Part shown: positions 24,726 to 41,721 of the stretch, one piece after another
How positions within the stretch are numbered: the stretch's first letter is position 1
Layout of the letters: the number at the start of each line of letters is the position of its first letter
The notes under the pieces: model-generated
The model's database searches: none
Seen by the model: the letters and a program-made list of their open reading frames with translations, nothing else
What the model was told of the DNA's origin: nothing
Translations under genes and position numbers: made by a program
From: a virus
Direction: 5' to 3' (one strand)
Virus record (IMG/VR): IMGVR_UViG_3300021142_000004
DNA: 64,000 bases

Positions 24726-24753
24726 AAAAAAGGAAGATTAATCTTCCTTTTTT
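24726..24753 (-). terminator. Intrinsic terminator
   Basis: Palindrome AAAAAAGGAAGATT/AATCTTCCTTTTTT at the end of the glutaredoxin gene. Confidence 0.7.
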
Positions 24754-25025
24754 AAAATATATTCATTAATTAAATTAATTATATCATCTTCACTTTGATA
24801 ATCTCTACCAGGTACAAATACCGTTCCATCTTCACTACCTTCATTTCGTATAAAAACTGTTGGTAAAAGATTATAACCTGTTTGTTCAACTACTTGACTC
24901 CAAATATCAGGATTTTGTGTTATCTCAATTTCATTAAAAAATATATTTTGTGTAATTAGTCTTTTTTTTAAACTTTCACAATGTCCACAACCTAATAATG
25001 TGAACACAATCACATCGTTTCCCAT
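24738..25025 (-). CDS. Glutaredoxin-like protein
   Basis: CGHC active site, LPTVFI. Confidence 0.85.
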   Translation of the reverse strand: MGNDVIVFTLLGCGHCESLKKRLITQNIFFNEIEITQNPDIWSQVVEQTGYNLLPTVFIRNEGSEDGTVFVPGRDYQSEDDIINLINEYILKKED

Positions 25026-25330
25026 TATAAAGTATTTAATACATCTTTATAGAACTTGTCTGAATTAACACCTGATGATCTATGTTTTAATTCTTTTCCA
25101 TTATAAATTAATACTGTAGGTATTCCAGTTACACCTAATGCGACGGCAAAATCTCTATTTTGATCAACATCTATCTTAATAAATGTAACATCTGGATATT
25201 CTTTTTCGATTGACTCCAATCTTGGTATTAGTTGTTTGCATGGGCCGCACCAAACACCGAATAGATCCACCAAAATTTTTTTACCACCTTCTTGTAATTC
25301 TTTTAATTTTTCTGCATTTACATTTTCCAT
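25025..25330 (-). CDS. trxA: Thioredoxin
   Basis: WCGPC, GIPT. Confidence 0.92.
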   Translation of the reverse strand: MENVNAEKLKELQEGGKKILVDLFGVWCGPCKQLIPRLESIEKEYPDVTFIKIDVDQNRDFAVALGVTGIPTVLIYNGKELKHRSSGVNSDKFYKDVLNTL

Positions 25331-26175
25331 TACTTAAATCCTATTTTACTTGTGTTATTTGTTTTGAATAATTCAACATCTATATTATATATATCCGCTA
25401 ATACCATTTCTTCATTAACAGTTTCCTCTTTACCTAAATGTTTTAATAATTTATTTGTTTCTTCTACATTTAATTTACCAAATTTATGTTCGGCAATTAA
25501 CCTACCCTTACGAAGTAATGCAGAATCAATTCTTTCTCTTTTCATATTAAAGGTTGCAATTATCTGTATATTAAGACAATCACCTAAAATACCATCAGTC
25601 AAATTAAGTATATTTGAAACACCTGTTGGTGATCCACTTGTCTCTCTATCACTAATTACCCTTTCAGCATCTTCAATAATTAATATTGAATTTTTGTTTT
25701 CCATTAAGAATGGGATAATACTTGGTTCAGATAATGAATCCGCCATTGATGGTGGAATAAATAATATTTCTTTATCTGTTATTAACTTGGAAAGATATTT
25801 TAAATATGATGTATTATGTGATAATATATCGTTTGTATAATATCTGTGATTAGAATCGTCATCTAATTCTAGATCAAACATATTTTCTTCATAATCAAGT
25901 TTAGTTACTTCAATTACTTCAGATTCTGTTAATAAATCATCACCAAAACAACATATTTTATCACCAATTTTTAAATCTTTAACAAAAACCTCTTCCATAT
26001 CATCCATATAAAAGACAATATGATTATCTGCACATTTTAATTCATTACCATCCGATAATTTAATATGGTAAACCTCATAAGGTATCGTTTTATGTATAAC
26101 ATTAATATCTACCCAACCATTATCTGTTAAAACTTCAATATCTTCTAATATTGTACTCTGTATAAATTTTTTCAT
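25330..26175 (-). CDS. Split intein C-half (121 aa) fused to AAA+ ATPase C-extein
   Basis: VLTDNGW, block B CADNH, block F MFDLEL, block G LSHN|T; then Walker B LIIEDAE, sensor ATFN and Arg finger ALLRKGR. Confidence 0.92.
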   Translation of the reverse strand: MKKFIQSTILEDIEVLTDNGWVDINVIHKTIPYEVYHIKLSDGNELKCADNHIVFYMDDMEEVFVKDLKIGDKICCFGDDLLTESEVIEVTKLDYEENMFDLELDDDSNHRYYTNDILSHNTSYLKYLSKLITDKEILFIPPSMADSLSEPSIIPFLMENKNSILIIEDAERVISDRETSGSPTGVSNILNLTDGILGDCLNIQIIATFNMKRERIDSALLRKGRLIAEHKFGKLNVEETNKLLKHLGKEETVNEEMVLADIYNIDVELFKTNNTSKIGFK

Positions 26176-26181
26176 TTTTTT

Positions 26182-26440
26182 TTATTTATTTATAAATTCG
26201 TTACAAATTTTTATAACCTCATCTTTATTTTTTTTCATACTCACGTTTTTTACCTTTTCCTCTATTTTTAAAAATAAATTCAGATTTTTCAATTCCAAAT
26301 TTATTTATGATTTCTTGTTTATTTAAACCTCTACTAATATTAATTTTTTCTCTTTCTTCATTTGTTTTACTATAATAAGTTTCATTTCTTTTTTTAATAA
26401 TTTCATTAATTTTTTCTTTTGAACATATTAAATATGCAGG
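26182..26440 (-). pseudogene. Decayed homing endonuclease relic between the split-intein halves
   Basis: ATG-less frame ...INKFGIEKSE... followed by frameshifted KNKDEVIKICNEFINK*, resembling the C-terminus of Vsr-like homing endonucleases. Confidence 0.5.
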
Positions 26441-26451
26441 AAAGGGTAGAA

Positions 26452-27132
26452 CTACATTAAATCTTCAATATTTATTATTGATACTTCTTTAGTTTTTTTA
26501 TTTCTTATTTTAATTTTTGTTTTACCTATGACACACTTACCTGTACCCGGATCTCCATGTAAAAGGATAATACCCTTGTCATTTTTCTTGTTTAATCTGT
26601 CAACAATAACATTATGTATCTCAAGAAATTTCTTCCCGTAATTCAACTCTAAATCAATATCTGGTACTATCAAATCATATTCTTCTTTATCCAAATGACC
26701 CATATCTGTTTTAACTAGGTTTATATTAGATTTCTTTTTAGGTCTTTCATATGTTTTAATGACATTAAAATCTAATTGTTCTTCCAAAGACCCTCTAGTT
26801 AGATTGTAATAAAAATCAATAGAGATTAGATCATTCTTTTTATCATTATCAAAATTAACAACAAACATTAATGTTTTTTTACGATTAACATATAATGTTA
26901 AATGATACATACTATGTTGTCTTTTGTTTGACTCAATCCTAACTTCTTTACTAAAACCTTCTTTATTAAAATATTCTAATATTGTTTGATCATAAAACAA
27001 TGTAGTTGAACGTTTTGAAGGTAATGAATCAAATAAATGTGTAAATAATTGTTCCGTTGGTAGATCTGCACCATATGCCTCATCATAGAAATTATAGTCT
27101 GTTGGTAAATAATTACCTATTTTTTTACTCAT
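26452..27132 (-). CDS. AAA+ ATPase N-extein fused to a 27-aa split intein N-half
   Basis: ILLHGDPGTGK|CVIGKTKIKIRNKKTKEVSIINIEDLM*. Likely start MSKKIG at 27132 (track 27192). Confidence 0.9.
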   Translation of the reverse strand: MSKKIGNYLPTDYNFYDEAYGADLPTEQLFTHLFDSLPSKRSTTLFYDQTILEYFNKEGFSKEVRIESNKRQHSMYHLTLYVNRKKTLMFVVNFDNDKKNDLISIDFYYNLTRGSLEEQLDFNVIKTYERPKKKSNINLVKTDMGHLDKEEYDLIVPDIDLELNYGKKFLEIHNVIVDRLNKKNDKGIILLHGDPGTGKCVIGKTKIKIRNKKTKEVSIINIEDLM

Positions 27133-27169
27133 AAAATAATAATAATTGAAAATAATGATAAAATAAAGA

Positions 27170-27478
27170 TTAATTAAGACATACTGGTTCAAAACCAGTT
27201 ACATCCATGAAAATATTGTTTTTTTCTTCCTGTGGGTATTCTTTTTTTGCAATTGATATAACTTTTGTTGTCTTTCTCAAAAGTTCAAATTGAACTTCCG
27301 ATAACATTGGTTCACCATTCTTATCAAAATTCTTTTGAGCAATTTCTTCCAAATATTTGAAGAATATTTCTTCATCACCGTTATCTAAAAAATAACGTTT
27401 TGATTCTTCATTACTATTAAAGAATTTCTTTACTGTTTGGATATATATTAAAACTTCGGGTGACATATTCTCTATCAT
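27170..27478 (-). CDS. Hypothetical protein
   Basis: 102-aa ORF in operon. Confidence 0.6.
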   Translation of the reverse strand: MIENMSPEVLIYIQTVKKFFNSNEESKRYFLDNGDEEIFFKYLEEIAQKNFDKNGEPMLSEVQFELLRKTTKVISIAKKEYPQEEKNNIFMDVTGFEPVCLN

Positions 27479-27483
27479 AAATA

Positions 27484-28329
27484 TTAATAATTCATAATTA
27501 ATAATTCCAAACCTTCATTTTGTGTACCATCTTTTTTCGCTGATGCCGCCTTCTTAAACGCCTTAACTTCCCATCTATAACTTAATTTTGGAAACCATTG
27601 TTCCAATTTAGGGAAATCATAATATGATAGACTAAATCTACCCTGAATACGTTTTAAACGTGAAGCAAGTCTTTCATGGTCAGCACTATCAAAATCATGG
27701 TTGGAATAATAGTTTTCAGTTTTCCAATATGGTGGGTCCATGTAAAAATATGTTTTCTCAGAGTCATATTTCTTAATTACTTCCTCAAAATCCATATTTT
27801 CAATGAATGTAATCTTATCAAAATGTGCACGATATTCAGGATGTTTAAGTTTATCCAAGAAAATTAATACCTTACAACGATACTTCCCTTTATAATCCGT
27901 ATACTTTGCAGTCTCAGGTTTTGAACCAGAAAAAACTTGTGATAAGACATATACATATTTACAAGCAACTTCAAAATTAGGTTCATCTCCAATTACAAAC
28001 TCAGGATCAAATATTTCTTTTTGATACTGATTATACATTTCTCTATACTCTGGTGGTGTATTCTCAACACCTAATTGTTGACAAGGGTATTTACTTAATT
28101 CTTCATGTAATCTGTCATAATGTTTAGCACATTTCATTAAATTTGAATTAAGACCATTAAAGTCATTATATACCACCGTTTTTAAGTTTGGGTACTTATT
28201 CAAATCCATGTTAAAAAACACCCAAAACATACCTGAAAATCCTTCTACGTATGTTTCTATGTCTTGAGGGATGTATTCTACTATCCATTTACCTATTCTT
28301 GACTTACCACCAATGTAACTAATACACAT
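27484..28329 (-). CDS. dam: DNA adenine methyltransferase (Dam/D12 class)
   Basis: SYIGGKS, YVEGFSG, YNDF, DPPY. Confidence 0.88.
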   Translation of the reverse strand: MCISYIGGKSRIGKWIVEYIPQDIETYVEGFSGMFWVFFNMDLNKYPNLKTVVYNDFNGLNSNLMKCAKHYDRLHEELSKYPCQQLGVENTPPEYREMYNQYQKEIFDPEFVIGDEPNFEVACKYVYVLSQVFSGSKPETAKYTDYKGKYRCKVLIFLDKLKHPEYRAHFDKITFIENMDFEEVIKKYDSEKTYFYMDPPYWKTENYYSNHDFDSADHERLASRLKRIQGRFSLSYYDFPKLEQWFPKLSYRWEVKAFKKAASAKKDGTQNEGLELLIMNY

Positions 28330-28334
28330 AATTT

Positions 28335-28640
28335 TTATTTTTTTCTGTACTTTTTTTTATTTTTTATTATTTCAATAACCTCATCAAATATAATTTTTTT
28401 TCTTGATAAAAAGAAATTACTTTCAAAATAAAATCCCTGATATATTTTTTCAGGAAACATTCTACCAACAATAAACATATTAACTAAACACTTTTTAATA
28501 TTTTCATATTGTTCAATTTCCCCCATTTCAGATAATAATTCATCTGCAACTTAGTATATAATATTAAATTCAGTATTTTCGGTAATTAACTCTTGTTGTT
28601 TTACTGACTGATCAAAATCTTTTTTTTTAATTAATTTATA
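28335..28640 (-). pseudogene. Small ORF, possibly a pseudogene with an in-frame TAA
   Basis: Frame KYKLIKKKDFDQ...NIIY*VADELLSEMGEIEQ; only the 63-aa part from 28526 is open. Confidence 0.3.
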
Positions 28641-28654
28641 CTTTTATTGTGTGA

Positions 28655-28662
28655 CAAATATA
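28655..28662 (-). promoter_or_regulatory. Bacteroidota-type -7 element TATATTTG
   Basis: Matches TAnnTTTG at the head of the leftward dam/AAA operon. Confidence 0.5.
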
Positions 28663-28740
28663 AATAAAATATTTTAAATAAAAAAATGAATCAAAAATTT
28701 TTTATTGATTAAATGATTTTTATTTTATATATTTAATATT

Positions 28741-28893
28741 ATGGGATGTACAAGTTGTAAAAAGAATTCAAATTATAAAGATCAAATAATTCAAAGTACT
28801 AAAAATGTTGAGAAAGGTATTGTATGGTTTAGTGTTATCTGGACATTATTAGCATTATATGGTCTATATAGTTTAATTAGAAATATTTTTTAA
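28741..28893 (+). CDS. Small membrane protein (50 aa, MGCTSCKK... plus TM helix), absent from ORF track
   Basis: ATG 28741 to TAA 28893, TAATG-coupled to the next gene; hydrophobic C-terminal helix. Confidence 0.65.
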   Translation: MGCTSCKKNSNYKDQIIQSTKNVEKGIVWFSVIWTLLALYGLYSLIRNIF

Positions 28894-29531
28894 TGAAAAA
28901 TGGTAAATATTTTATAGTACTCTTTTGCAATAAAAAAAGAGTAAAAACGTTATATAGATGTAAAAAAAGACATACTGTTTATGAGTATTGGTACGAATTC
29001 AAGACTCAAAAGAAACCCCCATTTATAAAACTCCAAGGTAGAAAACGTAACCTAGAATTAACATATGAATTAGCACTGATCTTTCCAAATAATAGATGGG
29101 CAACAAACCCTTGGGTTAAAGATAGTTTAGGTAGAAATATTGAAGCTAAGATTGAAGATAATAAATTCCGTATAAAAGAAATGATCCCATATTGGGAAGA
29201 AGAACTTATATATGATTTCAGTATTAAAAAAAGAATACGTTATCATATTATGATGGAATATATTGAATCAATAAATGATGTTGCCCAAATATTCACATTA
29301 AATAATAAATTATTTGTTCAAGTTGAAAATGATATACGTTTATTTGGTAATAAGAATATTGCAGATACAGAAAGATTATTTGAAATTGTTCGAGCAGACT
29401 TATTGAAAAAGAAAAAAGGTAATTTTATCTTTGTTAAAGACATAACTACCTCTCAGAGAAAACAACTCTATGAACTATTAGAATCAAAAGGATTTAAAAG
29501 AACAGAATTATTTAGACACTATTCTTATTAA
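28893..29531 (+). CDS. Hypothetical basic protein
   Basis: 212-aa ORF. Confidence 0.6.
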   Translation: MKNGKYFIVLFCNKKRVKTLYRCKKRHTVYEYWYEFKTQKKPPFIKLQGRKRNLELTYELALIFPNNRWATNPWVKDSLGRNIEAKIEDNKFRIKEMIPYWEEELIYDFSIKKRIRYHIMMEYIESINDVAQIFTLNNKLFVQVENDIRLFGNKNIADTERLFEIVRADLLKKKKGNFIFVKDITTSQRKQLYELLESKGFKRTELFRHYSY

Positions 29532-29745
29532 AGATAAAATCGGTATCACCAACTTTAACATTAAATGTTTCTTCTGGTAATTCCATATTCATTGCAAATT
29601 TACTTTGTATTGTAGAAAACATCTTTTTATATTCTTCCACACCTACTTCCAAAATCACCGTTTTAGATTTTGGTTTAATTTTTAATTTATCAAGCAAATC
29701 GGAAACTTGTGCAAGATCCACTAATAACTCATCTTTCTTTTCCAT
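29512..29745 (-). CDS. Hypothetical protein
   Basis: 77-aa ORF, TAATG-coupled. Confidence 0.55.
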   Translation of the reverse strand: MEKKDELLVDLAQVSDLLDKLKIKPKSKTVILEVGVEEYKKMFSTIQSKFAMNMELPEETFNVKVGDTDFIFNKNSV

Positions 29746-29948
29746 TATTTAATATTAAAAATTCTTTTTATTTTATCAAAAAAAGTTAATTTCTTTTTTG
29801 GTGGAAACATCTTGGTTTTATCCAATTGTTTAATTTCCTCAATCATCTTCTTCTTCTGAATCTGAATCTCTATCGAATCCTTCGTCAATTCCTTGTCCAA
29901 CCAAGTTAATGCTTGTTGAATCCTCCTGTCCGGTTTCTTGTTCTCCAT
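29745..29948 (-). CDS. Hypothetical protein
   Basis: 67-aa ORF overlapping the upstream gene by 110 nt. Confidence 0.5.
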   Translation of the reverse strand: MENKKPDRRIQQALTWLDKELTKDSIEIQIQKKKMIEEIKQLDKTKMFPPKKKLTFFDKIKRIFNIK

Positions 29949-30309
29949 TATCTGATATAAAATTTAATTCTTTTAATTTATCTAATGATTGATTTTTAAA
30001 AAGAAGTTCTAACTCTTTTACTTTTGACATAAAGAGTTTATGTTTTTCTTCTTCTTCTTTATTAGTAACAATTATATCTAATGCACATGTTAATGCAACA
30101 TTATATCCTTCTTCAGTACCAACTGCAATCAATGATAGTAATGTAAATCTTTCATTCTTATCTTGTATCTTTGTCTTTATTGACCTATAAGGTTTAATTA
30201 TCTCATCATATGACCAATTTATTGGAACTTTAATATCCAAACTAACATTATTGTCAATCTCCCTTAATGAGAAAAAATAGGGTTTCAATTTTCTTATATA
30301 TTCAAACAT
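29839..30309 (-). CDS. Hypothetical protein with acidic tail
   Basis: Likely start MFEYIRK at 30309 (track 30330). Confidence 0.6.
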   Translation of the reverse strand: MFEYIRKLKPYFFSLREIDNNVSLDIKVPINWSYDEIIKPYRSIKTKIQDKNERFTLLSLIAVGTEEGYNVALTCALDIIVTNKEEEEKHKLFMSKVKELELLFKNQSLDKLKELNFISDNGEQETGQEDSTSINLVGQGIDEGFDRDSDSEEEDD

Positions 30310-30314
30310 TTCTT

Positions 30315-30491
30315 TTAATTTAAAAAACAAGTTATTATGTATGATGATGAAAAATATAAAATAATTTTTTCAATCTCATTTATTTTTATTGGAGTTGGTT
30401 CTTCTTGAAAGAATTTAAGACCAAACTCAATTAGAAATCGTAATGAATAAATAATACTCAATACGAATAAAAATACTTTAATCTGATGCAT
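30315..30491 (-). CDS. Small two-TM membrane protein (58 aa), absent from ORF track
   Basis: MHQIKVFLFVLSIIYSLRFLIEFG...IILYFSSSYIITCFLN*; fills the intergenic gap. Confidence 0.55.
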   Translation of the reverse strand: MHQIKVFLFVLSIIYSLRFLIEFGLKFFQEEPTPIKINEIEKIILYFSSSYIITCFLN

Positions 30492-30666
30492 TTTGTGATT
30501 GTATGTTTTTTAATATATCCTTTCTATAAACTGGTATCAAGGATTTTATTTCTTGAGCATATTTCCTTGCTCTTATTGATGCAGAATGGTTACCTTTTTG
30601 AGTAACTTTAGTTGTTTCAACAGACATTTTTTCTATAAGGTCTTTTATTTTTTGTAATGATTCCAT
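30478..30666 (-). CDS. Hc1-like (histone H1-like) nucleoid protein
   Basis: KGNHSASIRARKYAQEIK resembles the Hc1 core KGNKAAGTRARK. Confidence 0.7.
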   Translation of the reverse strand: MESLQKIKDLIEKMSVETTKVTQKGNHSASIRARKYAQEIKSLIPVYRKDILKNIQSQNASD

Positions 30667-30704
30667 ATAATTACTGTTTTCAATATCAATATACGGAAAA
30701 AAAA

Positions 30705-31157
30705 TTATTTTTTCAAGTTTTGTTCTAAAATTTTATAAACTTCTAATAAAACATCCAATTCAGATCTAGTTTTTACATTGTTTATATTAAATAAATTATT
30801 CAAATAATTATTTATCTTAGTTTCATTTCCTTTAACTTGACATATATAAAATGCCTCAAGAAAGAAAACCCAAAAATATTCATAATGAGTTCCCCTTTCT
30901 CTAAAGAAAATTCTTTCTTTTTCAAAATTATTGATTGTTTTGTCCCAACACCAAGTGAAGTGTATTTTTTCATCCTTATCCTGAATGAATTTAGGACCAA
31001 GGTAAGTTGAATCTATTAACTCATATAATGAAATAAGAAAGTCGTGAAAGAGTTCTAATTTTTCACGACTTATATTATATGTTCTACACCAAACATCAAG
31101 TTGATGTTTGAAATTATCTAATGATATATCGTCTAAGTTTTCTTCTTTATATTCCAT
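30705..31157 (-). CDS. Hypothetical protein
   Basis: 150-aa ORF. Confidence 0.6.
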   Translation of the reverse strand: MEYKEENLDDISLDNFKHQLDVWCRTYNISREKLELFHDFLISLYELIDSTYLGPKFIQDKDEKIHFTWCWDKTINNFEKERIFFRERGTHYEYFWVFFLEAFYICQVKGNETKINNYLNNLFNINNVKTRSELDVLLEVYKILEQNLKK

Positions 31158-31207
31158 AATTCCATAATATTAACAATATAAGAATAAAAGAAAACAAAAA
31201 GAAGATA

Positions 31208-32800
31208 TTATTGAGATTTTTTATTATAAGAATAAAGTTTCTTCATTTTATCTATCTCACTTTCAAGAATAACCTTTTTTTGAATAGATTCTTTAACCAC
31301 TTTTACTGGTTGAACATCTTTTTCATACATTGGTTGGTCTTCAATTTCCTTTTTCTTTCTTTTAGCAACTTTACCTATATTTTCTCCGGTTTTAGTTTTT
31401 ATTGAATTACCATTTTTTTGTGAATTACCCATTGTCGAATCCCCTTCTAACGCTTTTTTAACTCTTTCTTTAAATTGTTCTGATGGTTCATGATCATACT
31501 TTGCATCTTGTAATCCCATACCTCTGTTATCCTCAACATACTCATCTTCTTCTTTATTATTATTGAATTTAACAACTTCTTTTGTATTCTTACCTTTACC
31601 TATATGATGTGGAAATTCAGGATTATCATTACCCTCAAAAGATAAATAATCTTTCATTTTTTTATCAACATCTTTAATGTGTTGATCATTTTCTTTACCA
31701 CTATCATTTCTTGATTTTTTTGCCGCAGTTAAACCTGGTATTGATTCTTTAACAATTTGTTTAATTACCTCAGCAAATTCACTTTCACTTAAACGAATTG
31801 TTCTTTTACCTTCATTTAATGATGGTTCACCCATGATATTAGAAATATCTTTATAGTGTTCTCTTGGTGATTTATGGTAACTTGAGAATTTATCTGTACC
31901 CATTTCATGTTTTTTACCTTTACATTTCTTACATACAGATCCAAATTGGTTTTCACCAGTTCCATGACAATGTGAACATGGTTTTGGAACATTTAATTCC
32001 ATATGTTCAGGATCTTCTTCCTCTGGATATCTTTCATCATCATCTTCAAAATCAATTTGTTCATCCATTTCAAAACTATCTTCTTTTGGCATTTCAAATT
32101 CTTCTTCCATTTCATTTCCCCAACATTCATCACATTCTTCTTCATCAACCTCATCTTGATAAGGATCTCCACCCACATGACCTTCACCACCACAATGTTG
32201 ACAAGTTTCACCACCCTCATCTTGACCAAAACCTTCACAATGTGGACATTCTTCTAACATTTTATCTGAAGATTGTGAATCACCATCTTCTTCATACATT
32301 TGACCATCACCACATTCATCACATTCCTCATCTTCATAAACATCATTCAAGTACATACCATCTGTGGTTTGTTCTTCTTCTTCCATGTTTTTCCAACACT
32401 CATCAACATCATAAATGTTTTCATTAATCTTAACTCTTTTAAGACCTTTATTTTTTGCAAATGCAATTGCTTCTTTAATTGTTTTTATTTTTGGTTGTTC
32501 CATATTTTGATTTGTATTTTCTTCTAATTTATCACACATTTCATCCAATTTATCTAACATATCCTCATGTGAATCATAATCACCCTTTTCAATAATAAAT
32601 TGTTTGCCAGGATGTTCTTTCTTCCATTTATCTAAATGTTCACTAGCTTCATCTTCTGAATTAAATGTTTCGACAGGTTCACCATCACACATAATGTGAT
32701 AATATTCTTTTTTATCTTCTTCCATTTCAGAAATTATTCTTTTTCTAACTTCAGTTGAAATAATATTTTCTAAAATCGTATTTAATTGATTTGTTTTCAT
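31208..32800 (-). CDS. Acidic head-associated/scaffold-like protein with DnaJ-type CxxCxGxG zinc fingers
   Basis: CPHCEGFG/CQHCGGEG, CSHCHGTG/CKKCKG, EEECDEC repeats, IRLSESEFAEVIKQIVKE. Likely start 32800. Confidence 0.6.
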   Translation of the reverse strand: MKTNQLNTILENIISTEVRKRIISEMEEDKKEYYHIMCDGEPVETFNSEDEASEHLDKWKKEHPGKQFIIEKGDYDSHEDMLDKLDEMCDKLEENTNQNMEQPKIKTIKEAIAFAKNKGLKRVKINENIYDVDECWKNMEEEEQTTDGMYLNDVYEDEECDECGDGQMYEEDGDSQSSDKMLEECPHCEGFGQDEGGETCQHCGGEGHVGGDPYQDEVDEEECDECWGNEMEEEFEMPKEDSFEMDEQIDFEDDDERYPEEEDPEHMELNVPKPCSHCHGTGENQFGSVCKKCKGKKHEMGTDKFSSYHKSPREHYKDISNIMGEPSLNEGKRTIRLSESEFAEVIKQIVKESIPGLTAAKKSRNDSGKENDQHIKDVDKKMKDYLSFEGNDNPEFPHHIGKGKNTKEVVKFNNNKEEDEYVEDNRGMGLQDAKYDHEPSEQFKERVKKALEGDSTMGNSQKNGNSIKTKTGENIGKVAKRKKKEIEDQPMYEKDVQPVKVVKESIQKKVILESEIDKMKKLYSYNKKSQ

Positions 32801-32801
32801 A

Positions 32802-33557: not shown

Positions 33558-33796
33558 TATCTAACATTCTTTAACGCACCTTCCCAAAATGACTTTCTTT
33601 GCCATAATGTTTTAAATAATTCAACAACCACTTTGGTGGAAAGATCAATTATTTTATCATCAATTTTTTTTGTACCCAATTCATCTTGAATGATTTTAAC
33701 AACAATTCTATGAGCATCAGTAGAATCCAAAAAAGATTTTATTTCTTTCTTGGATATTCTTTCAATTTCTTTTTTATCTTGGTCCGTTAATGCCAT
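33557..33796 (-). CDS. Hypothetical protein
   Basis: 79-aa ORF, coupled. Confidence 0.6.
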   Translation of the reverse strand: MALTDQDKKEIERISKKEIKSFLDSTDAHRIVVKIIQDELGTKKIDDKIIDLSTKVVVELFKTLWQRKSFWEGALKNVR

Positions 33797-34308
33797 TATA
33801 TATTATTTTTTCTTTCAGTAATTAATGGATTCATTGCATCTTGATATACTGTTAAAAATTTACTTAATTTTGTTATTAAATCAAGTTGTTCTTGTTCAAG
33901 TTTAAACATTTCCGCATTTAAATAAAGACCATCATTTTGACCCGTAATTAAAACAAATTTTAAATCATCAATATGTCCATCTAATCTAATTTGTTCGGTA
34001 GAAATTACCATACCGGGTTCAAATTCTGTTAACTGAGATACTTGTGCTTTAAAATTATCTATTAATTGTGATATTTTATTTTTTTGATCATCAGTTAATT
34101 TCATATCTGATGGGTCATTTGAATTTAACTTAACCTCAACGTCATTAATAACAGTAACATCATTTTGTTCGTTATCTGAAGATTGTTGTTCAGGTGTGTT
34201 TTCGATTTGTTCTCTAAGTATATTTGATGATTGTTTACTTTCATTAAGTCTTCTTAATGTGTTTAACATTTTTTTGGTCTCATCATAACCTATGTATTTA
34301 CTTTTCAT
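33796..34308 (-). CDS. Hypothetical protein
   Basis: 170-aa ORF. Confidence 0.6.
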   Translation of the reverse strand: MKSKYIGYDETKKMLNTLRRLNESKQSSNILREQIENTPEQQSSDNEQNDVTVINDVEVKLNSNDPSDMKLTDDQKNKISQLIDNFKAQVSQLTEFEPGMVISTEQIRLDGHIDDLKFVLITGQNDGLYLNAEMFKLEQEQLDLITKLSKFLTVYQDAMNPLITERKNNI

Positions 34309-34897
34309 TGTTAAAAAATATTCTAAAATTAAACGAAGGGTTTATATCTGTATAAATATCTGAGAAATTTGATTTACATACAATTCCTTTAAAATTAGAT
34401 GCATTTTTAAAATATCCTTGGGAGGGAACAACCTGTTTGAAGATATTATGTTTTTCACATAATTCATTTGTCAATAAAGAAATGGAATTTAATTGTTCTT
34501 CTGTGTACTTATCCCACCAATAATGATTTCTCCAATTTTTTAATAATGGTGTTAATCTATAAGGGTCACCTATCCAATTATAATGTACACCGGTAATCGT
34601 ATTTTTCTCTAACCAACCCAAATTTTCTACAGCAATCTTTATTATTCGTCTATCTTTTATAGGATCGTTAAAAGTATTGGAACTATAATTTGTGTCAAAT
34701 ATTTTAAATATTTCACCACTCTTAGAAACAACAAAATGGGGAGCACTTTCGTACTTCCCATTTCTCCTATATTTTATCATTTTAATAAAATCTTCCGTTC
34801 TCCTATTAGTGTCGTATAATAATATTTGTGTTTTTTTATATTTCTTCTTAACTACATTTATATTATCTAATATTTCTACGTTGTGAATCACTAACAT
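34298..34897 (-). CDS. N-acetylmuramoyl-L-alanine amidase-like protein (degenerate Zn site)
   Basis: APHFVVSKSGEIF, IAVEN, YTEEQL and TDINP fit the Amidase_2 fold; expected His ligands appear replaced. Confidence 0.6.
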   Translation of the reverse strand: MLVIHNVEILDNINVVKKKYKKTQILLYDTNRRTEDFIKMIKYRRNGKYESAPHFVVSKSGEIFKIFDTNYSSNTFNDPIKDRRIIKIAVENLGWLEKNTITGVHYNWIGDPYRLTPLLKNWRNHYWWDKYTEEQLNSISLLTNELCEKHNIFKQVVPSQGYFKNASNFKGIVCKSNFSDIYTDINPSFNFRIFFNNEK

Positions 34898-35081
34898 GTC
34901 GTGATATTAATTTTTTCCCACTTGGGGTTCTTATGCTATCGTAGGAAATGTTTCTACCAGGTCCATGTGTGTAATAAAGTTGAAAGTTAGTACCTTCATT
35001 CGGTGTTTTTTTTATATTCTCTTCAACAACAGGTTCATCTACCACTTCTTCTATAACTGGTTCAACTATTTCCTCGATTAC
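34863..35081 (-). CDS. -1 frame extension of the 35078-36463 membrane protein
   Basis: VIEEIVEPVIEEVVDEPVVEE... opens directly at the A10G run in the -1 frame. Confidence 0.55.
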   Translation of the reverse strand, partial: VIEEIVEPVIEEVVDEPVVEENIKKTPNEGTNFQLYYTHGPGRNISYDSIRTPSGKKLISRHVSDSQRRNIR

Positions 35082-36463
35082 TTTTTTTTTTCTTCAGGTT
35101 CTTCCTGAATTGGTTCTTCAATTGTTTCAACTTTTGAAACTTCTTCAATAGGTGTATCAATAACTTGTTCTTCCACTTCTTCCGGTGTTGCAAATGATTC
35201 TGTTACCGTTTCATTTTTCCAATCTTCAAATTGACCCTTATAATCCTCTTGTTGGAAATTATTTTCCATTTTAGGTTTTATAATGGAAAAATTTGTATCA
35301 TTCAGTTCTTCTGGTGGTGTTATAGTGGAAAAATTTTGTTCTTCTTCTTCCTTTGTTGGGATATACTCATCATCATTATTTTCCTCAAAATTAGATAAAT
35401 TATGACCATTATAGTTTTCATATTCATCTTGATTCATTTCCTCTACTTCTTCATCACTTACAGCAGGATAAACTTCTCTTGACTTTGGTGGAGTATATGT
35501 ATCTTTAGGTAAATTTGTCTCACCATCAGGTTTAATTTCCCCATAAACTTTAATTTTATGATCATCATTAGATTTAACGATATCTTCCCTATTAATATAT
35601 TGTTTTTTACTTAATATTGATTCAATGTTATTTAATTCGTTTTCATTTGGTTTTAATCTATCAGATTCAGAAATTACATTTTTAATATCATCAACATCAA
35701 TATCCACTTTTTCATCTTCTTTTGGATCATTCTCACCCATAACCAATTGATTGAATGCAATGATTAAAGCAAGTGCCAAAGGGTCAAATACAATAACAAT
35801 TAATATAATAAAGAATTTAACCACACTATTAAGTTCAACACCAAATGCTTCAGCAACAAATCTAAAACCACCTACTTCTCTTTCAATTCCGATATTGTTA
35901 TTTTTAACATCATTAATTTTAGAATTATAAACAACAGAACTATCTTGTAATGAACTAATTTTATTACGAATTAAAGAGGCTTCTTTATCTCTATTATCAA
36001 CAGATCTTAATAAACTTCTATTAACCTTACCATTTTCAATAATTTTACCTTGATTTGATTCAAGGTTATTTAATTGATTGGTCAACATATTAATCTGAGT
36101 TTCATTTGATTTAATCTTATTATCCCAAACAGATACTTCTCTTTTAACTTGCTCCAATTTAATATTTTGTTGTTGGAACGCATTTGACAAATAACCAAAT
36201 ATACCCGCAGATGTGATAACCATAAGAATACCAACCGCACTAGTCAAATACCATTTATTAAAACCACGAACAGTATCCCATGATTGTTTAAGATATGTCG
36301 CTGTAGTTAATTTTGCAAATTCTAACGAACCTGCCATTATCATCACAGCAGTAGATGCACCACTAAAAAGTACACCTAAACCTGTCACCGAGAAAAATGC
36401 GGCACTACCCGCAATTAAAAATGCAGATATTGCCACCATTGCTTTTAACCAATTCTTTTTCAT
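35078..36463 (-). CDS. Membrane protein (3 TM, coiled coil, TM) with acidic tail
   Basis: Hydrophobic N-terminal helices, IVFDPLA motif, E/P-rich C-terminus. Confidence 0.75.
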   Translation of the reverse strand: MKKNWLKAMVAISAFLIAGSAAFFSVTGLGVLFSGASTAVMIMAGSLEFAKLTTATYLKQSWDTVRGFNKWYLTSAVGILMVITSAGIFGYLSNAFQQQNIKLEQVKREVSVWDNKIKSNETQINMLTNQLNNLESNQGKIIENGKVNRSLLRSVDNRDKEASLIRNKISSLQDSSVVYNSKINDVKNNNIGIEREVGGFRFVAEAFGVELNSVVKFFIILIVIVFDPLALALIIAFNQLVMGENDPKEDEKVDIDVDDIKNVISESDRLKPNENELNNIESILSKKQYINREDIVKSNDDHKIKVYGEIKPDGETNLPKDTYTPPKSREVYPAVSDEEVEEMNQDEYENYNGHNLSNFEENNDDEYIPTKEEEEQNFSTITPPEELNDTNFSIIKPKMENNFQQEDYKGQFEDWKNETVTESFATPEEVEEQVIDTPIEEVSKVETIEEPIQEEPEEKKK

Positions 36464-36464
36464 A

Positions 36465-37283
36465 TTAATCTTGATAATTTAATAAAACAAAACTTTCGTT
36501 TCTTAATTTCTTTATAGACTTATCTCTAAGTTGTCTAACCCTTTCCTTAGTACAACCAAATTCTTCACCCAAATCATCCAAATTCGATTCATACCCACAT
36601 AACCCATAATATTTCTCAATTATTACCTTTTCTCTATCATCCAAAACAGATAATAACATATTAACCCTCTTTTTTATTTCTTCTGGTGAATTAAATAAAT
36701 CATCAGGACTTTTAATGTCATTATTTGGTATCAAATCAATTATCTGATCTCCATCCTCATTTATTGGGTCAAATAATCCAACACAATAAGGTAAATCAAT
36801 TGAACCTGATTCCTCTGTTGGGTTAATCTTTGTATCGTCACCTCTTTCTTCTTGTCTTTTCTTCTTTTGTGAATCTTGAATCACATTTGTTGGGAGTCTT
36901 ATTGTTCTTGAATGGTCATTCAATGCGGCAATAATTGATTGTCTAACCCACCAAACTGCATATGATATAAATTTTAAACCACTTGTAGGGTCAAATTTCT
37001 CCGCTGCCTTAATTAGTCCTATATTACCTTCAGATATTAAATCCAAAATTTCAAGACCTTGACTTTGATATGATTTTGCAACTGATATAACAAAACGTAA
37101 ACAACCAGTCACCAATTCATTCTGTAACTTTTCTTTACGTTCTTTACTAATGTTAGTTGTTCTTAATTCTTTAAAGATTTCTTCTTCTCTTTCTAATGTT
37201 AAGAGTGGATACTGACGAATATCTTTCATGTATTGTTTTACTTCGTCTGTGTGATTTAAAATCAAGCTTATGCTACGTGTCAT
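36465..37283 (-). CDS. RNA polymerase sigma-70 family factor, Bacteroidota RpoD-like
   Basis: LRFVISVAKSYQ..DLISEGNIGLIKAAEKFD..KFISYAVWWVRQSI; region 4 TKERVRQ. Confidence 0.93.
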   Translation of the reverse strand: MTRSISLILNHTDEVKQYMKDIRQYPLLTLEREEEIFKELRTTNISKERKEKLQNELVTGCLRFVISVAKSYQSQGLEILDLISEGNIGLIKAAEKFDPTSGLKFISYAVWWVRQSIIAALNDHSRTIRLPTNVIQDSQKKKRQEERGDDTKINPTEESGSIDLPYCVGLFDPINEDGDQIIDLIPNNDIKSPDDLFNSPEEIKKRVNMLLSVLDDREKVIIEKYYGLCGYESNLDDLGEEFGCTKERVRQLRDKSIKKLRNESFVLLNYQD

Positions 37284-37302
37284 ATAAAATAGTTATTTAA
37301 TA

Positions 37303-37333
37303 CAAATATAGTAAAAAAATCCAATAAAACAAA
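37303..37333 (-). promoter_or_regulatory. Bacteroidota housekeeping promoter TTTG-N19-TATATTTG
   Basis: Exact -33/-7 consensus with a 19-nt spacer upstream of the sigma gene. Confidence 0.7.
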
Positions 37334-37370
37334 TCTATTTTATTGGTATGTGTAGTGATAAAAGAATGGT

Positions 37371-37820
37371 TTAGTGTCTAATAATTAAAATTAATGTAAG
37401 TATTAAAATGATTCCACCTGAAAAAATTGATGTAAATTTATTTTTTGTTTGTTGTACACCCAAATTGAATTCGAGATTTTTAACTCTATTTTCTGATAAA
37501 TTATTTTCAATTTTTTCTTGATTAATTATGGAATCATAATTAACTTCTTTAATTTTCATTTTATTTATAATACTATCTTTTAAAGATAATTCATTATAAA
37601 CCTCCATTAATTCTTCATTGGTTTTTTCAAGATTTTCTTTACAAGAATCAAATCTTAATAAATCTTGGGTTATTTTTTTAACTATTGGAATAGGAAAAAA
37701 TTTATAATGTGTGGTATCTTTTTTAGTGTTGTGGGATGTATCCGTAACGGATTGTGAAAAAACTGTCGAGTTGATCGTCAGTATAATTATTAACATCATT
37801 AATCTTTTCATGATAAACAT
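37371..37820 (-). CDS. Exported coiled-coil protein with C-terminal TM (spanin-like?)
   Basis: Signal-like N-terminus and C-terminal hydrophobic helix; overlaps the upstream gene. Confidence 0.5.
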   Translation of the reverse strand: MFIMKRLMMLIIILTINSTVFSQSVTDTSHNTKKDTTHYKFFPIPIVKKITQDLLRFDSCKENLEKTNEELMEVYNELSLKDSIINKMKIKEVNYDSIINQEKIENNLSENRVKNLEFNLGVQQTKNKFTSIFSGGIILILTLILIIRH

Positions 37821-38094
37821 TATTTATTGTTGTTTTTTCAATTTTTATTTTATTTATGTTTGAATCAATTTTATTAATTTCAACATTATAATGCGTAATA
37901 TTACTATCTAATTTTTTCTGTTTAACTTCAATCCTATTAATAGACTCATTTATTGAGTCTATTTTTTGATAAAATTCTGGATCTCTATTTTTTCCACTTA
38001 TATAATTAAAAATAAAATAGGAGATAATACAGATTATTATTAGTGAAAATATAAATTTATAATATTTTGTAAAAAAATTAAAAATAAGTGACAT
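37723..38094 (-). CDS. N-terminal TM coiled-coil protein (i-spanin-like?)
   Basis: TM helix followed by heptad repeats. Confidence 0.5.
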   Translation of the reverse strand: MSLIFNFFTKYYKFIFSLIIICIISYFIFNYISGKNRDPEFYQKIDSINESINRIEVKQKKLDSNITHYNVEINKIDSNINKIKIEKTTINNVYHEKINDVNNYTDDQLDSFFTIRYGYIPQH

Positions 38095-38131
38095 AATATT
38101 GTTTTAAAATAAATATGTCACTTATCTAAAA

Positions 38132-38806
38132 TTATCTTTTCTTGGTTATAATTTCATCAATTATACCATATTCAAGAGCGTCTTGTGATGATAACCATAG
38201 GTCTCTTGATGTATCACTCTTAACTTGTTCTGCAGTCTTACCACAATACGAACCAAGTAATTCAAATAGGGAATCATTTAATTTCTCCCACTCAATCATA
38301 TCAATTTTTGCGTCTTGGATATTACCTCTAAAACCACCACTTGATTGGTGTAACATTGTTCTTGAAAATCTCAAAGAACTTCTTTTTCCTTTAGTACCAG
38401 CACCCAATAGAATTGAACCCATAGATGCTGCCATACCTGTGTTAATCGTTCTAATGTCAGAGATAATGTAATCCATAACATCTACCATCGAAAGACCTGA
38501 TTTCACAGATCCACCGGGACTATCAATGTGCATGGTAATATCGTTTGTATCGACACTATCAAGGAACATCAATTGTGCTTGTGTTATTACCGACATATTG
38601 TCATTAACTTCACCAGCAACCCATATAATTCTTTCCATCATCAAACGAGAAAACACATCAAGTTGTGCAATGTTCAATTGACGTTCCTCAATTACATAAG
38701 GAGTAAGACTATTCTCAACTTGTTTGTTGTAATAGTGTAAATTCAAGGAACTAATTCCTTTGTCTTTGGCAAATAAACCAAAATTCTTGTAATCCGTTGG
38801 ACTCAT
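38132..38806 (-). CDS. clpP: ATP-dependent Clp protease proteolytic subunit
   Basis: DVFSRLMMERII, IDSPGGSV, GMAASMGS (Ser), MLHQ (His), RDLWLS..ALEYGIID. Confidence 0.95.
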   Translation of the reverse strand: MSPTDYKNFGLFAKDKGISSLNLHYYNKQVENSLTPYVIEERQLNIAQLDVFSRLMMERIIWVAGEVNDNMSVITQAQLMFLDSVDTNDITMHIDSPGGSVKSGLSMVDVMDYIISDIRTINTGMAASMGSILLGAGTKGKRSSLRFSRTMLHQSSGGFRGNIQDAKIDMIEWEKLNDSLFELLGSYCGKTAEQVKSDTSRDLWLSSQDALEYGIIDEIITKKR

Positions 38807-38828
38807 AATTATTTATTTTTTTGTGTTG

Positions 38829-38836
38829 CAAATATA
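38829..38836 (-). promoter_or_regulatory. Bacteroidota-type -7 element TATATTTG upstream of clpP
   Basis: TAnnTTTG match ~23 nt before the ATG. Confidence 0.55.
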
Positions 38837-38852
38837 TGGTAAACTTTTTAAA

Positions 38853-41105
38853 CTACGAAATATTTTTTGTGATGAAATCTATTGAAGATATATTTTCTTC
38901 TTTTTTAATCATGATTAAATTATCTGACCAGTTTCTTATCAATGTATTATGAGAAATTACAAATATGTGTTCAAAGTAGGTTCTAATCTTCTTAAAGAAC
39001 TCACCAACCATTTCTATATTCTCATCAGCAACTTTACCAAATACTTCATCCATTACAACAATGTTTGGTTTAGGTAATGAAGATATTTTAGTTAATACAC
39101 TTCTTAATGCCAATGATGATATTGTCTTTTCATAACCTGAACCTGAATTCAATGGCTTAACTACTCTTGACTCATTATCAATCATTAAGAACTCAACCTC
39201 ATTCTTTTCATTAATATTTAATTCCAACATGAAATGACAACTATCAGTCAACAATCTAGATAATTCTTGATTTAATAATGGTATCATATTTTTAAGAATA
39301 ATCTTAGATATACCATTCTTACCATAAATTGTTAAGTAGGTTTTAAATACTTGTATCAATTCCTCTTCTGATTTAATCTTTTTAACCAAATCATCATTAA
39401 CCTTTATCTTTTCACCCATATTGGTGATTTGATTTTTGTGTTTTTCGATGAAACCATTAGTTTGTCTGATATCACCATTGGTAGTTTCAATCAATGTTTT
39501 TAAAGTAACAACTTCATTATCAATTTTTTGATTCTCTTCTAATTTTTTCTTGTTACTTTCAAAGTTATCAAGTTTAACTTGTTTCTTGTCAATGTCCAAT
39601 TGTTTTTGTTCTGCCTCCAATTCATGACGAGTTCTACGAAGTTTATTCTTCTCATACTCATCATATTCTTTCTTCAGTAAATTCAATTTTTCATCTTCTT
39701 CTACCCTAAACTTCAATGATGTTTCTACTTCACTAATATGTCCTTCACAATCTTTTATTTCGTATTTTAAATCATTGATTTCATCTGTATGATCCACTTC
39801 TTCTAATGAACGTTTACAAGTTGGACAAACACTTCCTTCCTCTAATTCTTTAATCAATTTAAGTTTTTGATCAATATCATTACGAGTTACTTTAAGGTCA
39901 AAATTAAAGTCAGAAATAGTACTTTTAATACCTTCATGTTTATCTTCATAATAATATTCAGAAGGTTCAAGAACAGAAATTTCATTGGCACTATCTAATG
40001 TTAATTGTTTTTGTCTTTTTAAATCATTAATTTCTTTTAAAAGAACTTCCGGATTAACTTTTATTAGTTCTTGGTCAATGTTATTATTCCTTAAACGTAA
40101 TGCGGTTTCTCTTTTTTCTTCAAGATCTCTTAACCTAACATTAAAATCACCCAATTTTTCAGTTAATTTAATGATTTCACTTTCAGATTCAATTATAGTA
40201 TTTCTACAAAGAGTATTATCATTTTCTAATTGTAATAAGTTATAAGTGTTAGATACCAATTTCTTAGACCATTCATTATAAATTTCTTTACAATTATCTT
40301 CCTTTGCTTTAAGTGCTTCCAAACCTAAAAACTTAGTTAAAATCTGTCCTCTTGCAGTAGGTTTAGATTCAATCAATTCTTCCAAATTATAACCAGTCGT
40401 AAGAATGGTTGAAAGGAAGTCTTCTTGTGTTCCTATTGCAGATTCAATAAACTCTTCTGTTTCTCTTCTTTGTTCACCACTTAAATTAGTTATAGTCCCA
40501 TCTGTATTTTTCTTATAGAACTCCAATTTATTTGTAACAGTATAATCACCCGACCTACTTTTCTTCCTTGTTAAGATCCTTTCAATGAAATAATCCTCAT
40601 TATCAATTGTTATTTCCCCTTTAACTGATAACTCATTTTCATCAGAAAACCTATTGAATATTTCAATATTGGTTTTAGTTTTGGTTGTTGTATTAAAGAA
40701 TAAGAACATCAATAAGTCTACGGACATCGTAGAATTATGCGATAATATCCCATTTGAATAATATTGTTTTACCTCATCTACCTCAATATCTAATAAATCT
40801 TTATAAACACCCGTTGTCATAACAGATTTAATAACATCATTCCCATTTTCTGTTTTTATAATTTGTCCAGGAATTAATTCTTTAACTGGTAAGAATCTAC
40901 CATTTTTTAATTTTATTCTATGGTTTTTAGAACAATTTAAAAATAACCCATCGGAAGTTTCAATTCTATGAACCTCTGAGTTTTTTTCTGTAATTTGACA
41001 ATCCATTATTTTTTTAAATCCATATGGTGTTTTTACTTTTAAATTTAAATCACCATATTTTTCAAATATTGTCTTAATATCACCTATTTTTATTTTTTTA
41101 TTCAT
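38853..41105 (-). CDS. sbcC: Split intein C-half (124 aa) fused to Rad50/SbcC (gp46-like) C-extein
   Basis: VKTPYGF, CSKNH, LLDIEV, LSHN|S; coiled coils, zinc hook CPTC, signature SGSGYE, Walker B VVMDE, ISH. Confidence 0.92.
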   Translation of the reverse strand: MNKKIKIGDIKTIFEKYGDLNLKVKTPYGFKKIMDCQITEKNSEVHRIETSDGLFLNCSKNHRIKLKNGRFLPVKELIPGQIIKTENGNDVIKSVMTTGVYKDLLDIEVDEVKQYYSNGILSHNSTMSVDLLMFLFFNTTTKTKTNIEIFNRFSDENELSVKGEITIDNEDYFIERILTRKKSRSGDYTVTNKLEFYKKNTDGTITNLSGEQRRETEEFIESAIGTQEDFLSTILTTGYNLEELIESKPTARGQILTKFLGLEALKAKEDNCKEIYNEWSKKLVSNTYNLLQLENDNTLCRNTIIESESEIIKLTEKLGDFNVRLRDLEEKRETALRLRNNNIDQELIKVNPEVLLKEINDLKRQKQLTLDSANEISVLEPSEYYYEDKHEGIKSTISDFNFDLKVTRNDIDQKLKLIKELEEGSVCPTCKRSLEEVDHTDEINDLKYEIKDCEGHISEVETSLKFRVEEDEKLNLLKKEYDEYEKNKLRRTRHELEAEQKQLDIDKKQVKLDNFESNKKKLEENQKIDNEVVTLKTLIETTNGDIRQTNGFIEKHKNQITNMGEKIKVNDDLVKKIKSEEELIQVFKTYLTIYGKNGISKIILKNMIPLLNQELSRLLTDSCHFMLELNINEKNEVEFLMIDNESRVVKPLNSGSGYEKTISSLALRSVLTKISSLPKPNIVVMDEVFGKVADENIEMVGEFFKKIRTYFEHIFVISHNTLIRNWSDNLIMIKKEENISSIDFITKNIS

Positions 41106-41169
41106 ATATATTTTAACTTTTATTTATAAAAATATAATATTAGTGGAAAAACTACTGTTAGAAAAAAAA

Positions 41170-41721
41170 TTATTTTAATTCATCAGGTAAAAACCCTAAT
41201 ATTTTAATTATTTCATTTTCATCATATTCAATATCTATTAAAGTTTCTTCATCAACACATTTTCCACCAAAGTTTTTTGGGTTAGATTCCACAGCGGTAA
41301 TACCTTCAAGTTCTGTAAAATCAATAACATTATTACCACCAAATGATAAGAAATTTGAAAATTCAATTCTCTTTATGTACCATTTGTTATAACGAACTTT
41401 ATTTTCATTTAACAAATCAATTGCACCATTAACTTTATTATCTAACCTATCAATCATATCCCATTTAATGTTGATTTTATTTTCTTCAATAAAATCTTTC
41501 ATTAATTTCTTTTGGAACTGATGATCGGTGATACTATCAGAAACTTCCAATGATTTTAGTTTAGTATCATCAGTATTGATGATGTGTTTTGGAACGATTT
41601 GTACGTTTCTTGATCCATACTTATGTTGGAAGTATGTTTTTATTCTTTTAACCTTTTCTTCAGTAAAATTCTCAGGTACATCTTCCCATGTAACCTTAAT
41701 AACCGGTGATTTATATTTCAT
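41170..41721 (-). CDS. sbcC: Rad50/SbcC N-extein (with N-terminal extension) fused to a 29-aa split intein N-half
   Basis: WYIKRIEFSNFLSFG..IDF..GITAVESNPKNFGGK|CVDEETLIDIEYD... Confidence 0.88.
   Translation of the reverse strand: MKYKSPVIKVTWEDVPENFTEEKVKRIKTYFQHKYGSRNVQIVPKHIINTDDTKLKSLEVSDSITDHQFQKKLMKDFIEENKINIKWDMIDRLDNKVNGAIDLLNENKVRYNKWYIKRIEFSNFLSFGGNNVIDFTELEGITAVESNPKNFGGKCVDEETLIDIEYDENEIIKILGFLPDELK

Follow-up and report, generated by a model that had tools for sequence, protein, structure and literature searches.

Can charge keep apart two split inteins that share one phage genome, and did the phage evolve that charge for the purpose? This question is raised by a stretch of viral DNA of 64,000 nucleotides (nt) from IMG/VR record IMGVR_UViG_3300021142_000004, hereafter called the window, in which an AAA+ ATPase gene and a Rad50/SbcC gene are each interrupted by an intein that consists of a short N-terminal fragment (IntN) and a long C-terminal fragment (IntC). 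A first-pass annotation, made from the letters of the window, had proposed that charge inversion and offset split sites prevent AAA/Rad50 chimeras. Our analysis leads to another answer, which we consider likely to be correct. The two elements would be independently acquired class-1 mini-inteins of the phage fractured-gene type, each located at the Walker A motif of a DNA-metabolism ATPase and each split by an endonuclease that has since decayed or been lost, where the charges and split sites were inherited and orthogonality is a by-product.

Exact insertion in the Walker A motif

Both ATPase genes were found to be cut between the Lys and the Ser/Thr of the Walker A GK(S/T) motif, as had been annotated, and all 69 of the 69 uninterrupted relatives join exactly at this point. 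These relatives comprise 25 IMG/VR loci for the AAA gene, which JGI names SpoVK/Ycf46/Vps4-family AAA+ ATPase, and 44 IMG/VR loci for Rad50 with identities of 58-94%. None of them carries either intein, and in both sets the matches to the N- and C-exteins abut in frame with zero gap. The AAA exteins occur free of an intein at 97% identity, while the 90%-identity cluster of the Rad50 N-extein includes intein-free proteins of 780 amino acids (aa), one of which is named SbcCD ATPase subunit. Since exteins this close to those of the window lack the inteins, the latter are presence/absence polymorphisms in a tight phage population. The Rad50 C-extein was observed to match the Pfam families SbcC_Walker_B and Rad50_zn_hook, both under the Pfam cutoffs.

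The inteins are truly atypically split within the P-loops, in agreement with the first-pass annotation, so that no lone fragment contains a complete Walker A motif. From what is known of P-loop biochemistry, a Walker A loop that is broken between Lys and Ser/Thr and left unligated is unlikely to function.

Intein identity and catalytic residues

In both genes a cysteine follows directly after the GK of Walker A and provides the nucleophile. The block B His, the block F Asp and the terminal SHN are present in both. Across the two lineages H52, D101, S119 and N121 do not vary and H120 hardly does, with the residue at position +1 being Thr in the AAA intein and Ser in the Rad50 intein. Comparison with the sequences of solved inteins in the PDB gave gp41-1 (E 7.5e-8) and CatC (6dsl_B, E 3.1e-7) for the AAA IntC, and CatC (E 6e-6) and VidaL (E 0.005) for the Rad50 IntC, where a contiguous relative of the latter matched VidaL at 7.6e-6. 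The Pho RadA intein was also among the PDB sequence matches. Both elements thus have the similarity, the nucleophile and the catalytic residues of class-1 inteins (Hint domain). Over 89 residues the two IntC parts share about 34% identity, and a scan of the window with a hidden Markov model (HMM) of the family returned these two inteins as its sole members there.

Offset split sites

The annotation had also placed the two split points differently, and this was borne out by the family HMM, the contiguous relatives and the alignment with VidaL: the IxIxDL strand lies ahead of the cut in the AAA intein and behind it in the Rad50 intein. Position 1 of the family HMM aligns to residue 2 of the AAA IntC and to residue 11 of the Rad50 IntC, which gives 10 extra N-terminal residues in the latter. 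Contiguous relatives of the Rad50 intein contain the hairpin, a segment ending in GFLPDELK, a short linker and the IxIxD strand in that order, and it is this order of hairpin, extension and strand that places the Rad50 cut ahead of the strand and the AAA cut behind it. In addition, residue 3 of the Rad50 IntC aligns to residue 24 of the VidaL chain, in which the IntC methionine is residue 20.

The AAA intein fits the S2 type of split, as its IntN of 27 aa ends just past the IxIxDL strand and the IntN of its lineage ranges from 27 to 38 aa. The Rad50 intein fits the S1 type by the position of its cut, with the strand in the IntC, but not by the ultra-short IntN, which has 29 aa as compared with 15-16 aa. 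The difference is due to a conserved, lineage-specific 13-residue segment that follows the hairpin. The GFLPDELK extension was observed to be invariant or nearly so in 10 split relatives and is also found in contiguous forms. We considered whether the strand-like tail of the Rad50 IntN means that the IxIxDL strand is duplicated in both halves, and this was rejected as the contiguous relatives hold both segments serially.

A still shorter candidate was noticed at locus L135 (G007:C1:9500-15500, minus strand), where a RecA/UvsX-like gene has an apparent IntN of 13 residues and an IntC that opens with an IxIxE strand. Should it prove real, it would be a natural IntN shorter than that of VidaL or PolB16.

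Conservation of the splits and decay of the endonuclease

The fragment proteins of the window recur exactly in independent JGI, ENA and Logan assemblies, and variants of the same length were found on other contigs at 90% identity or above. The AAA IntN has 27 aa and the same DLM end in five other IMG/VR contigs with the same allele (L164, L165, L167, L168 and L171). C-fragments of this allele, with 275-284 aa and the same starting methionine, form dozens of clusters, and the start of the IntC together with the catalytic residues is conserved in 24 other clusters. Among Rad-type inteins the IntN has 29 aa in 44 of 60 unique pairs. The same split architecture is kept over 40-75% sequence divergence. 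The IntN and the IntC are thus located on separate open reading frames (ORFs) with a break that is conserved among relatives, as in naturally split inteins.

In most relatives of both lineages the halves lie about 0.9-1.9 kb apart with an ORF of one endonuclease family between them; for the Rad-type relatives the gap is mostly 0.9-1.4 kb and holds a Vsr-like endonuclease ORF. These endonucleases are mutually homologous and show a weak DUF559/Vsr-fold signal. The free-standing endonuclease that marks a fractured gene is therefore present in most relatives, but an intact one was not found anywhere in the window, and the Rad50 spacer retains no trace of one. The AAA spacer does retain a relic. 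Its best region is matched by endonucleases of the same allele over 55-62 aa at 44-55% identity (pairwise E 1e-12 to 1e-14), corresponding to about residues 111-170 of these proteins, which identifies the spacer as a decayed endonuclease gene. When 16 endonucleases of the two lineages were searched against the window, nothing significant was found, and the relic was detected only by endonucleases of the same AAA allele. Immediately upstream of the start of the AAA IntC, a short stretch resembles the extreme end of the endonuclease C-tail (E 0.07, the best among all ORFs of the window). It lies in a frame other than that of the main relic, which suggests a frameshifted remnant of the endonuclease.

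The AAA spacer is in frame with both halves but contains five stops (one TAG and four TAA). An alternative genetic code or readthrough across the AAA halves was therefore ruled out, by these five stops of two kinds and by the homology of the spacer to an endonuclease.

Charge and distribution of the two lineages

The charges counted in the first-pass annotation (K/R against D/E) proved to be exact, with 7 and 3 in the AAA IntN, 10 and 29 in the AAA IntC, 2 and 10 in the Rad50 IntN and 21 and 16 in the Rad50 IntC. What was read into them is another matter, as the polarity of each intein is best understood against that of its lineage. AAA-type inteins occupy terminase, DnaB-like and other P-loop genes and were found in at least 401 confirmed stretches in IMG/VR. 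Their basic hairpin motif in the IntN is conserved family-wide. In 64 automatically paired members the mean net charge is +1.5 for the IntN (70% positive) and -9.4 for the IntC (94% negative), and in a first set of 10 it was +3.2 and -12.6 respectively.

The Rad-type lineage is also abundant. A search with the Rad50 IntC gave 512 library matches, including about 30 clusters of proteins of 740-770 aa that align at residues 1-124. Over 61 unique pairs the mean charge is -3.1 for the IntN and -1.7 for the IntC, and in the intein tree the values fall in roughly three clades. The window Rad50 intein is located among about 20 neighbouring tips in which the IntN ranges from -4 to -8 and the IntC from 0 to +9. 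The acidic IntN and the split site were also found in contiguous, cis-splicing relatives, where there is no choice of partner, and this counts against an origin in chimera avoidance.

The two alleles do not depend on each other's company. Of two complete genomes, G027 (405 kb) carries the AAA allele but lacks any Rad-type intein, and in G003 (339 kb) a Rad-type allele is present but an AAA-type intein is not. It is common for one contig to carry several inteins. The annotation had proposed to examine whether polarity is anticorrelated in related phages that carry both types, and mirrored polarity was absent from two such contigs: in G038 the Rad-type halves of 0 and -1 reside beside an AAA-type intein of +4 and -13, and in G036 Rad-type halves of -3 and -7 reside beside an AAA-type IntC of -11.

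Contig G038, a 94-kb fragment behind locus L217 (with loci L221 and L222), was observed to carry at least four inteins of the family in which the IntC heads its own ORF. The host genes are terminase-like, DnaB-like, Rad50 and another P-loop gene, and for three of these inteins a short IntN was located upstream. In G034, three intein matches are located within one open frame of 865 aa.

Modelled complex and cross-reactivity

A predicted complex of the cognate Rad50 halves, a check that the first-pass annotation had proposed, gave an interaction prediction score from aligned errors (ipSAE) of 0.85 as compared with 0.01 for the best control. The mark set for this score is reached by 58 of 80 solved complexes and by 2 of 110 mismatched pairs. 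At least 94% of contacts are shared between runs, and the predicted local distance difference test (pLDDT) value of the partner is at least 76. Solved complexes of look-alikes exist, so that the pass may reflect likeness only. In the model, residues 4-8 and 22-25 of the IntC sandwich residues 6-12 of the IntN, and positions 16-17, 20-21, 25 and 27-28 of the IntN also contact the IntC. The spacing of the latter contacts suggests that the IntN extension forms a helix.

The first hairpin has a charge of +6 in the AAA IntN and -8 in the Rad50 IntN, and the IntC strands with which they pair are acidic and Lys-rich respectively. Cross-splicing between the AAA and the Rad50 halves looks unlikely for two inteins with an identity of about 34% that are split at different sites and have opposite charges locally. 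One cross pair would have the IxIxDL strand twice and the other would have none, and both cross pairs would set like charges together at the modelled strand interface. Any orthogonality is probably the expected by-product of two diverged lineages that meet in one genome and not an adaptation of the window phage.

Origin of the split pair

The reading of two inherited mini-inteins builds on the observed anatomy of the loci, the exact insertion, the conservation, the lineage distribution and the endonuclease relic, with trans-splicing that restores both P-loops as the best-supported mechanism. A free-standing Vsr-like homing endonuclease gene would have split each intein and would later have decayed at the AAA locus, leaving the 276-nt relic, and been lost at the Rad50 locus, leaving a gap of 64 nt. 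The N-fragment (N-extein and short IntN) and the C-fragment (long IntC and C-extein) would be translated separately, after which the short IntN would dock into the nearly complete IntC and complete the Hint fold. Trans-splicing would then proceed from a thioester at Cys1 through attack by Thr+1 or Ser+1 and cyclisation of the terminal Asn to an intact P-loop ATPase. The charge patterns and split sites would be inherited traits of the lineage or subclade.

Several observations weigh against this reading. Block B has the form A/S-x-x-H rather than the classic T-x-x-H, the AAA IntC falls just short of the Pfam Intein_splicing cutoff (35.7 against 35.8 bits), and the Rad50 IntC gave no Pfam intein match at E<0.1. 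In addition, the IntN and IntC charges of the Rad-type inteins are anticorrelated when kinship is left uncorrected (Spearman -0.69 over 61 pairs and -0.79 in the 29-30-aa subgroup), which shows that charge complementarity has some importance and that members of the lineage can change polarity, so that selection on charge may have acted. This raw anticorrelation also speaks for the view that one of the inteins had its polarity inverted and its split site offset, by the phage or by selection in phages with several inteins, in order to stop cross-association and chimeras. So do the opposite hairpin charges, facing acidic and Lys-rich strands, and the position of the window Rad50 IntN at the acidic extreme of its lineage, where 4 of 61 pairs reach -8. 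The problem that such selection would address is real, as residual cross-talk is found mostly in short atypically split inteins (PMC7090010). With phylogenetic control, however, the association was lost (contrasts r -0.23, p 0.07; four supported independent pairs), and the candidate co-evolution of IntN and IntC charges was reduced to a trend that spans roughly three clades. The two polarities and the two split sites are older than the window genome, being present on numerous contigs, in host genes of other kinds and in forms that splice in cis, and G038 and G036 carry both types without the mirror image. As polarity is a trait of the lineage or subclade and complete genomes carry either allele alone, the annotated claim that the window phage evolved charge inversion and offset sites against AAA/Rad50 chimeras is not supported, and we regard chimera avoidance as an improbable origin of the pair.

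It is also conceivable that the fragments do not splice at all and are decaying genes, halves that associate non-covalently or conditional switches that gate the ATPases. The decayed endonucleases show that the loci are past active homing, and the adjacent SbcD/Mre11 gene is split without an intein, so that the phage tolerates at least one split gene that is not spliced. Nevertheless, all four ORFs are intact, the catalytic residues and the IntN extension are conserved as described above over the whole range of divergence, and the unligated Walker A would be unlikely to work; a failure to splice is accordingly rated as quite unlikely. The stops and the frame change could also be errors of sequencing or assembly in contiguous inteins, assembly errors having been named in the annotation for the stops, and such errors would fit the single frame shared by the AAA halves. 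They are hardly credible for a spacer with five stops and homology to an endonuclease and not to an intein, for Rad50 halves that lie in different frames with AT-rich non-coding DNA between them, or for exact proteins that recur in separate assemblies with fragment ends conserved in dozens of diverged contigs. Two inherited mini-inteins that splice in trans therefore remain the preferred explanation of the pair.

Comparison with known split inteins

Natural atypical split sites have been described as S1 (VidaL and PolB16) and S2 (AceL-TerL and GOS-TerL), with an IntN of 15-37 aa (PMC13014065). The AAA intein resembles AceL-TerL, GOS-TerL and the consensus Cat intein in its short IntN (27 aa as against 25-37 aa in the known ones), which contains the hairpin and the IxIxDL strand, in its long IntC and Cys1 and in its origin in phage or metagenome DNA; its relatives, in addition, are laid out as fractured genes, the endonuclease being located between the two halves. 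The AAA intein differs from these in that the host is the P-loop of an AAA+ ATPase rather than a terminase, that the +1 residue is Thr and that only a relic of the endonuclease is left. In the alignment with CatC, the AAA cut precedes that of CatC by a few residues and falls where the first helix begins, not behind it. The Rad50 intein resembles VidaL (from UvsX) and PolB16 in being cut before the IxIxDL strand, in an IntC start within about two residues of the VidaL IntC methionine and in a long IntC of about 124 aa. It differs from these in its longer IntN (29 rather than 15-16 aa), in its Rad50/SbcC host and in a sequence similarity to VidaL that is weak. In the literature searched we found no mention of a Rad50 or SbcC intein.

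The arrangement of the relatives, with N-extein and IntN, an endonuclease ORF, then IntC and C-extein on one strand of a phage DNA-metabolism gene, is that of the fractured genes of Dassa et al. 2009 (PMC2677866). Those genes are split at the canonical site except for the terminase, whereas the window has two atypical cuts and its endonucleases are decayed or gone. The same study reported an SbcD-like gene that is fractured without an intein, a situation that resembles the broken SbcD/Mre11-like gene of the window.

The premise that the halves associate largely by electrostatics stands for canonical split inteins, in which charge complementarity has been documented (PMC2677866). For the atypical Cat intein, a review reports that the fragments associate through clustered hydrophobic residues (PMC11766414). 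Pinto et al. 2020 found 15 of 16 diverse inteins to be mutually orthogonal, with the residual cross-talk mainly in short atypical fragments (PMC7090010), and charge grafting has been used to engineer orthogonality in NpuDnaB (bioRxiv 10.1101/546465). The window pair resembles such sets (gp41-1, gp41-8, NrdJ-1 and IMPDH-1, and the charge-grafted NpuDnaB), in which diverged split inteins from phage metagenomes are mutually orthogonal and interface charge patterns were used on purpose to engineer orthogonality. The published inteins, however, are mostly canonically split, and the orthogonality of the window pair is a prediction. To call the pair a ready-made orthogonal short-IntN tool thus overstates its novelty, since natural S1 and S2 inteins and large orthogonal sets have been published (PMC13014065, PMC7090010). 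Both inteins belong to widespread metagenomic lineages and illustrate no new principle, as S1 and S2 sites, charge complementarity and orthogonal sets had all been described.

Split inteins with a short IntN are useful for the semisynthesis and labelling of proteins, and few natural examples have been characterised. The window inteins add new host genes and sequences to this group. The Rad50/SbcC lineage is the most interesting part of what is left, as it is abundant, S1-split and found in both charge states, with a conserved IntN extension. Its many natural charge variants around this extension might be used as a panel to examine how a short fragment finds its partner. There is a slim chance that the P-loop lineage of Rad50/SbcC is an undescribed and abundant S1-split family with a GFLPDELK clamp on the IntN and switched charge states; if these states were to track co-resident split inteins, electrostatic partner discrimination would be naturally selected and the window would hold a working S1/S2 pair.

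Organization of the window

The window has a G+C content of about 27%, and its own proteins were placed on a metagenomic contig of 163,505 bp. The IMG/VR contigs of relatives reach 200-405 kb, some with terminal repeats, which indicates that the window virus is jumbo-phage-like. The coordinates of all features are collected in Table 1.

Table 1. Features of the two split-intein loci and of neighbouring genes in the window
Feature	Position	Strand	Description
AAA N-fragment ORF	27132..26455	-	N-extein and IntN
AAA+ ATPase N-extein	26536..27132	-	199 aa; ends in Walker A ...GTGK; 25 uninterrupted AAA genes have a homologous N-part
AAA IntN	26455..26535	-	27 aa; net charge +4; Cys1 at start; ends ...DLM; stop 26452-26454
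AAA spacer	26176..26451	-	276 nt; with relic of Vsr-like free-standing homing endonuclease
Best part of endonuclease relic	~26237-26422		within AAA spacer
Endonuclease C-tail likeness	26185-26244	-	candidate frameshifted remnant
AAA IntC	25813..26175	-	121 aa; net charge -19; ends SHN, then Thr+1
AAA+ ATPase C-extein	25333..25812	-	160 aa; first residue Thr+1; intein-free relatives to 97% identity (P0174)
Rad50 N-fragment ORF	41721..41173	-	N-extein and IntN
Rad50/SbcC N-extein	41260..41721	-	154 aa; ends ...GGK
Rad50 IntN	41173..41259	-	29 aa; Cys-initiated; net charge -8; acidic first hairpin and extension ending GFLPDELK; stop 41170-41172
Rad50 spacer	41106..41169	-	64 nt; frame differs between halves; AT-rich, non-coding
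Rad50 IntC	40734..41105	-	124 aa; net charge +5; opens with KIKIGDI strand; ends SHN, then Ser+1
Rad50/SbcC C-extein	38856..40733	-	626 aa; first residue Ser+1; zinc hook and Walker B/signature region
Context genes	24738-25330, 27484-28329, 36465-37283, 38132-38806		glutaredoxin- and thioredoxin-like ORFs (by sequence reading); Dam-type D12 methyltransferase, sigma-70 family factor and ClpP protease (Pfam)
212-aa ORF	28893-29531	+	Lys/Arg-rich; no Pfam match; strand opposite to all neighbours
SbcD/Mre11-like phosphoesterase gene	42415-43425	-	broken into ORFs of 221 and 98 aa without an intein
Endonuclease C-tail HMM match	42624-42722		within split SbcD region; weak

The context genes, with their redox ORFs, methyltransferase, sigma factor and protease, form a set typical of large phages. 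The 212-aa ORF may be a mobile or endonuclease-like insert. A scan of the region for promoters and terminators found fewer promoter-like sites than in shuffled sequences.

The Rad50/SbcC gene is located downstream of the SbcD/Mre11-like phosphoesterase gene. In all 13 relatives listed from the 42 loci that match the latter, including L001 at 93% identity, residues 1-194 of the first ORF and 36-98 of the second are carried in one frame about 11 codons apart. Compared with this single frame in the relatives, the first ORF of the window is longer by about 27 C-terminal residues and the second by about 35 N-terminal residues where the gene is broken. The match of the endonuclease C-tail HMM within this region is weak (E 0.44). 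The locus is an example of gene fracture by homing endonucleases that subsequently decay, with essential ATPases left dependent on trans-splicing, as would be the case here. Together with the two atypical inteins, the intein-less split of SbcD points to several fracture events in one jumbo phage.

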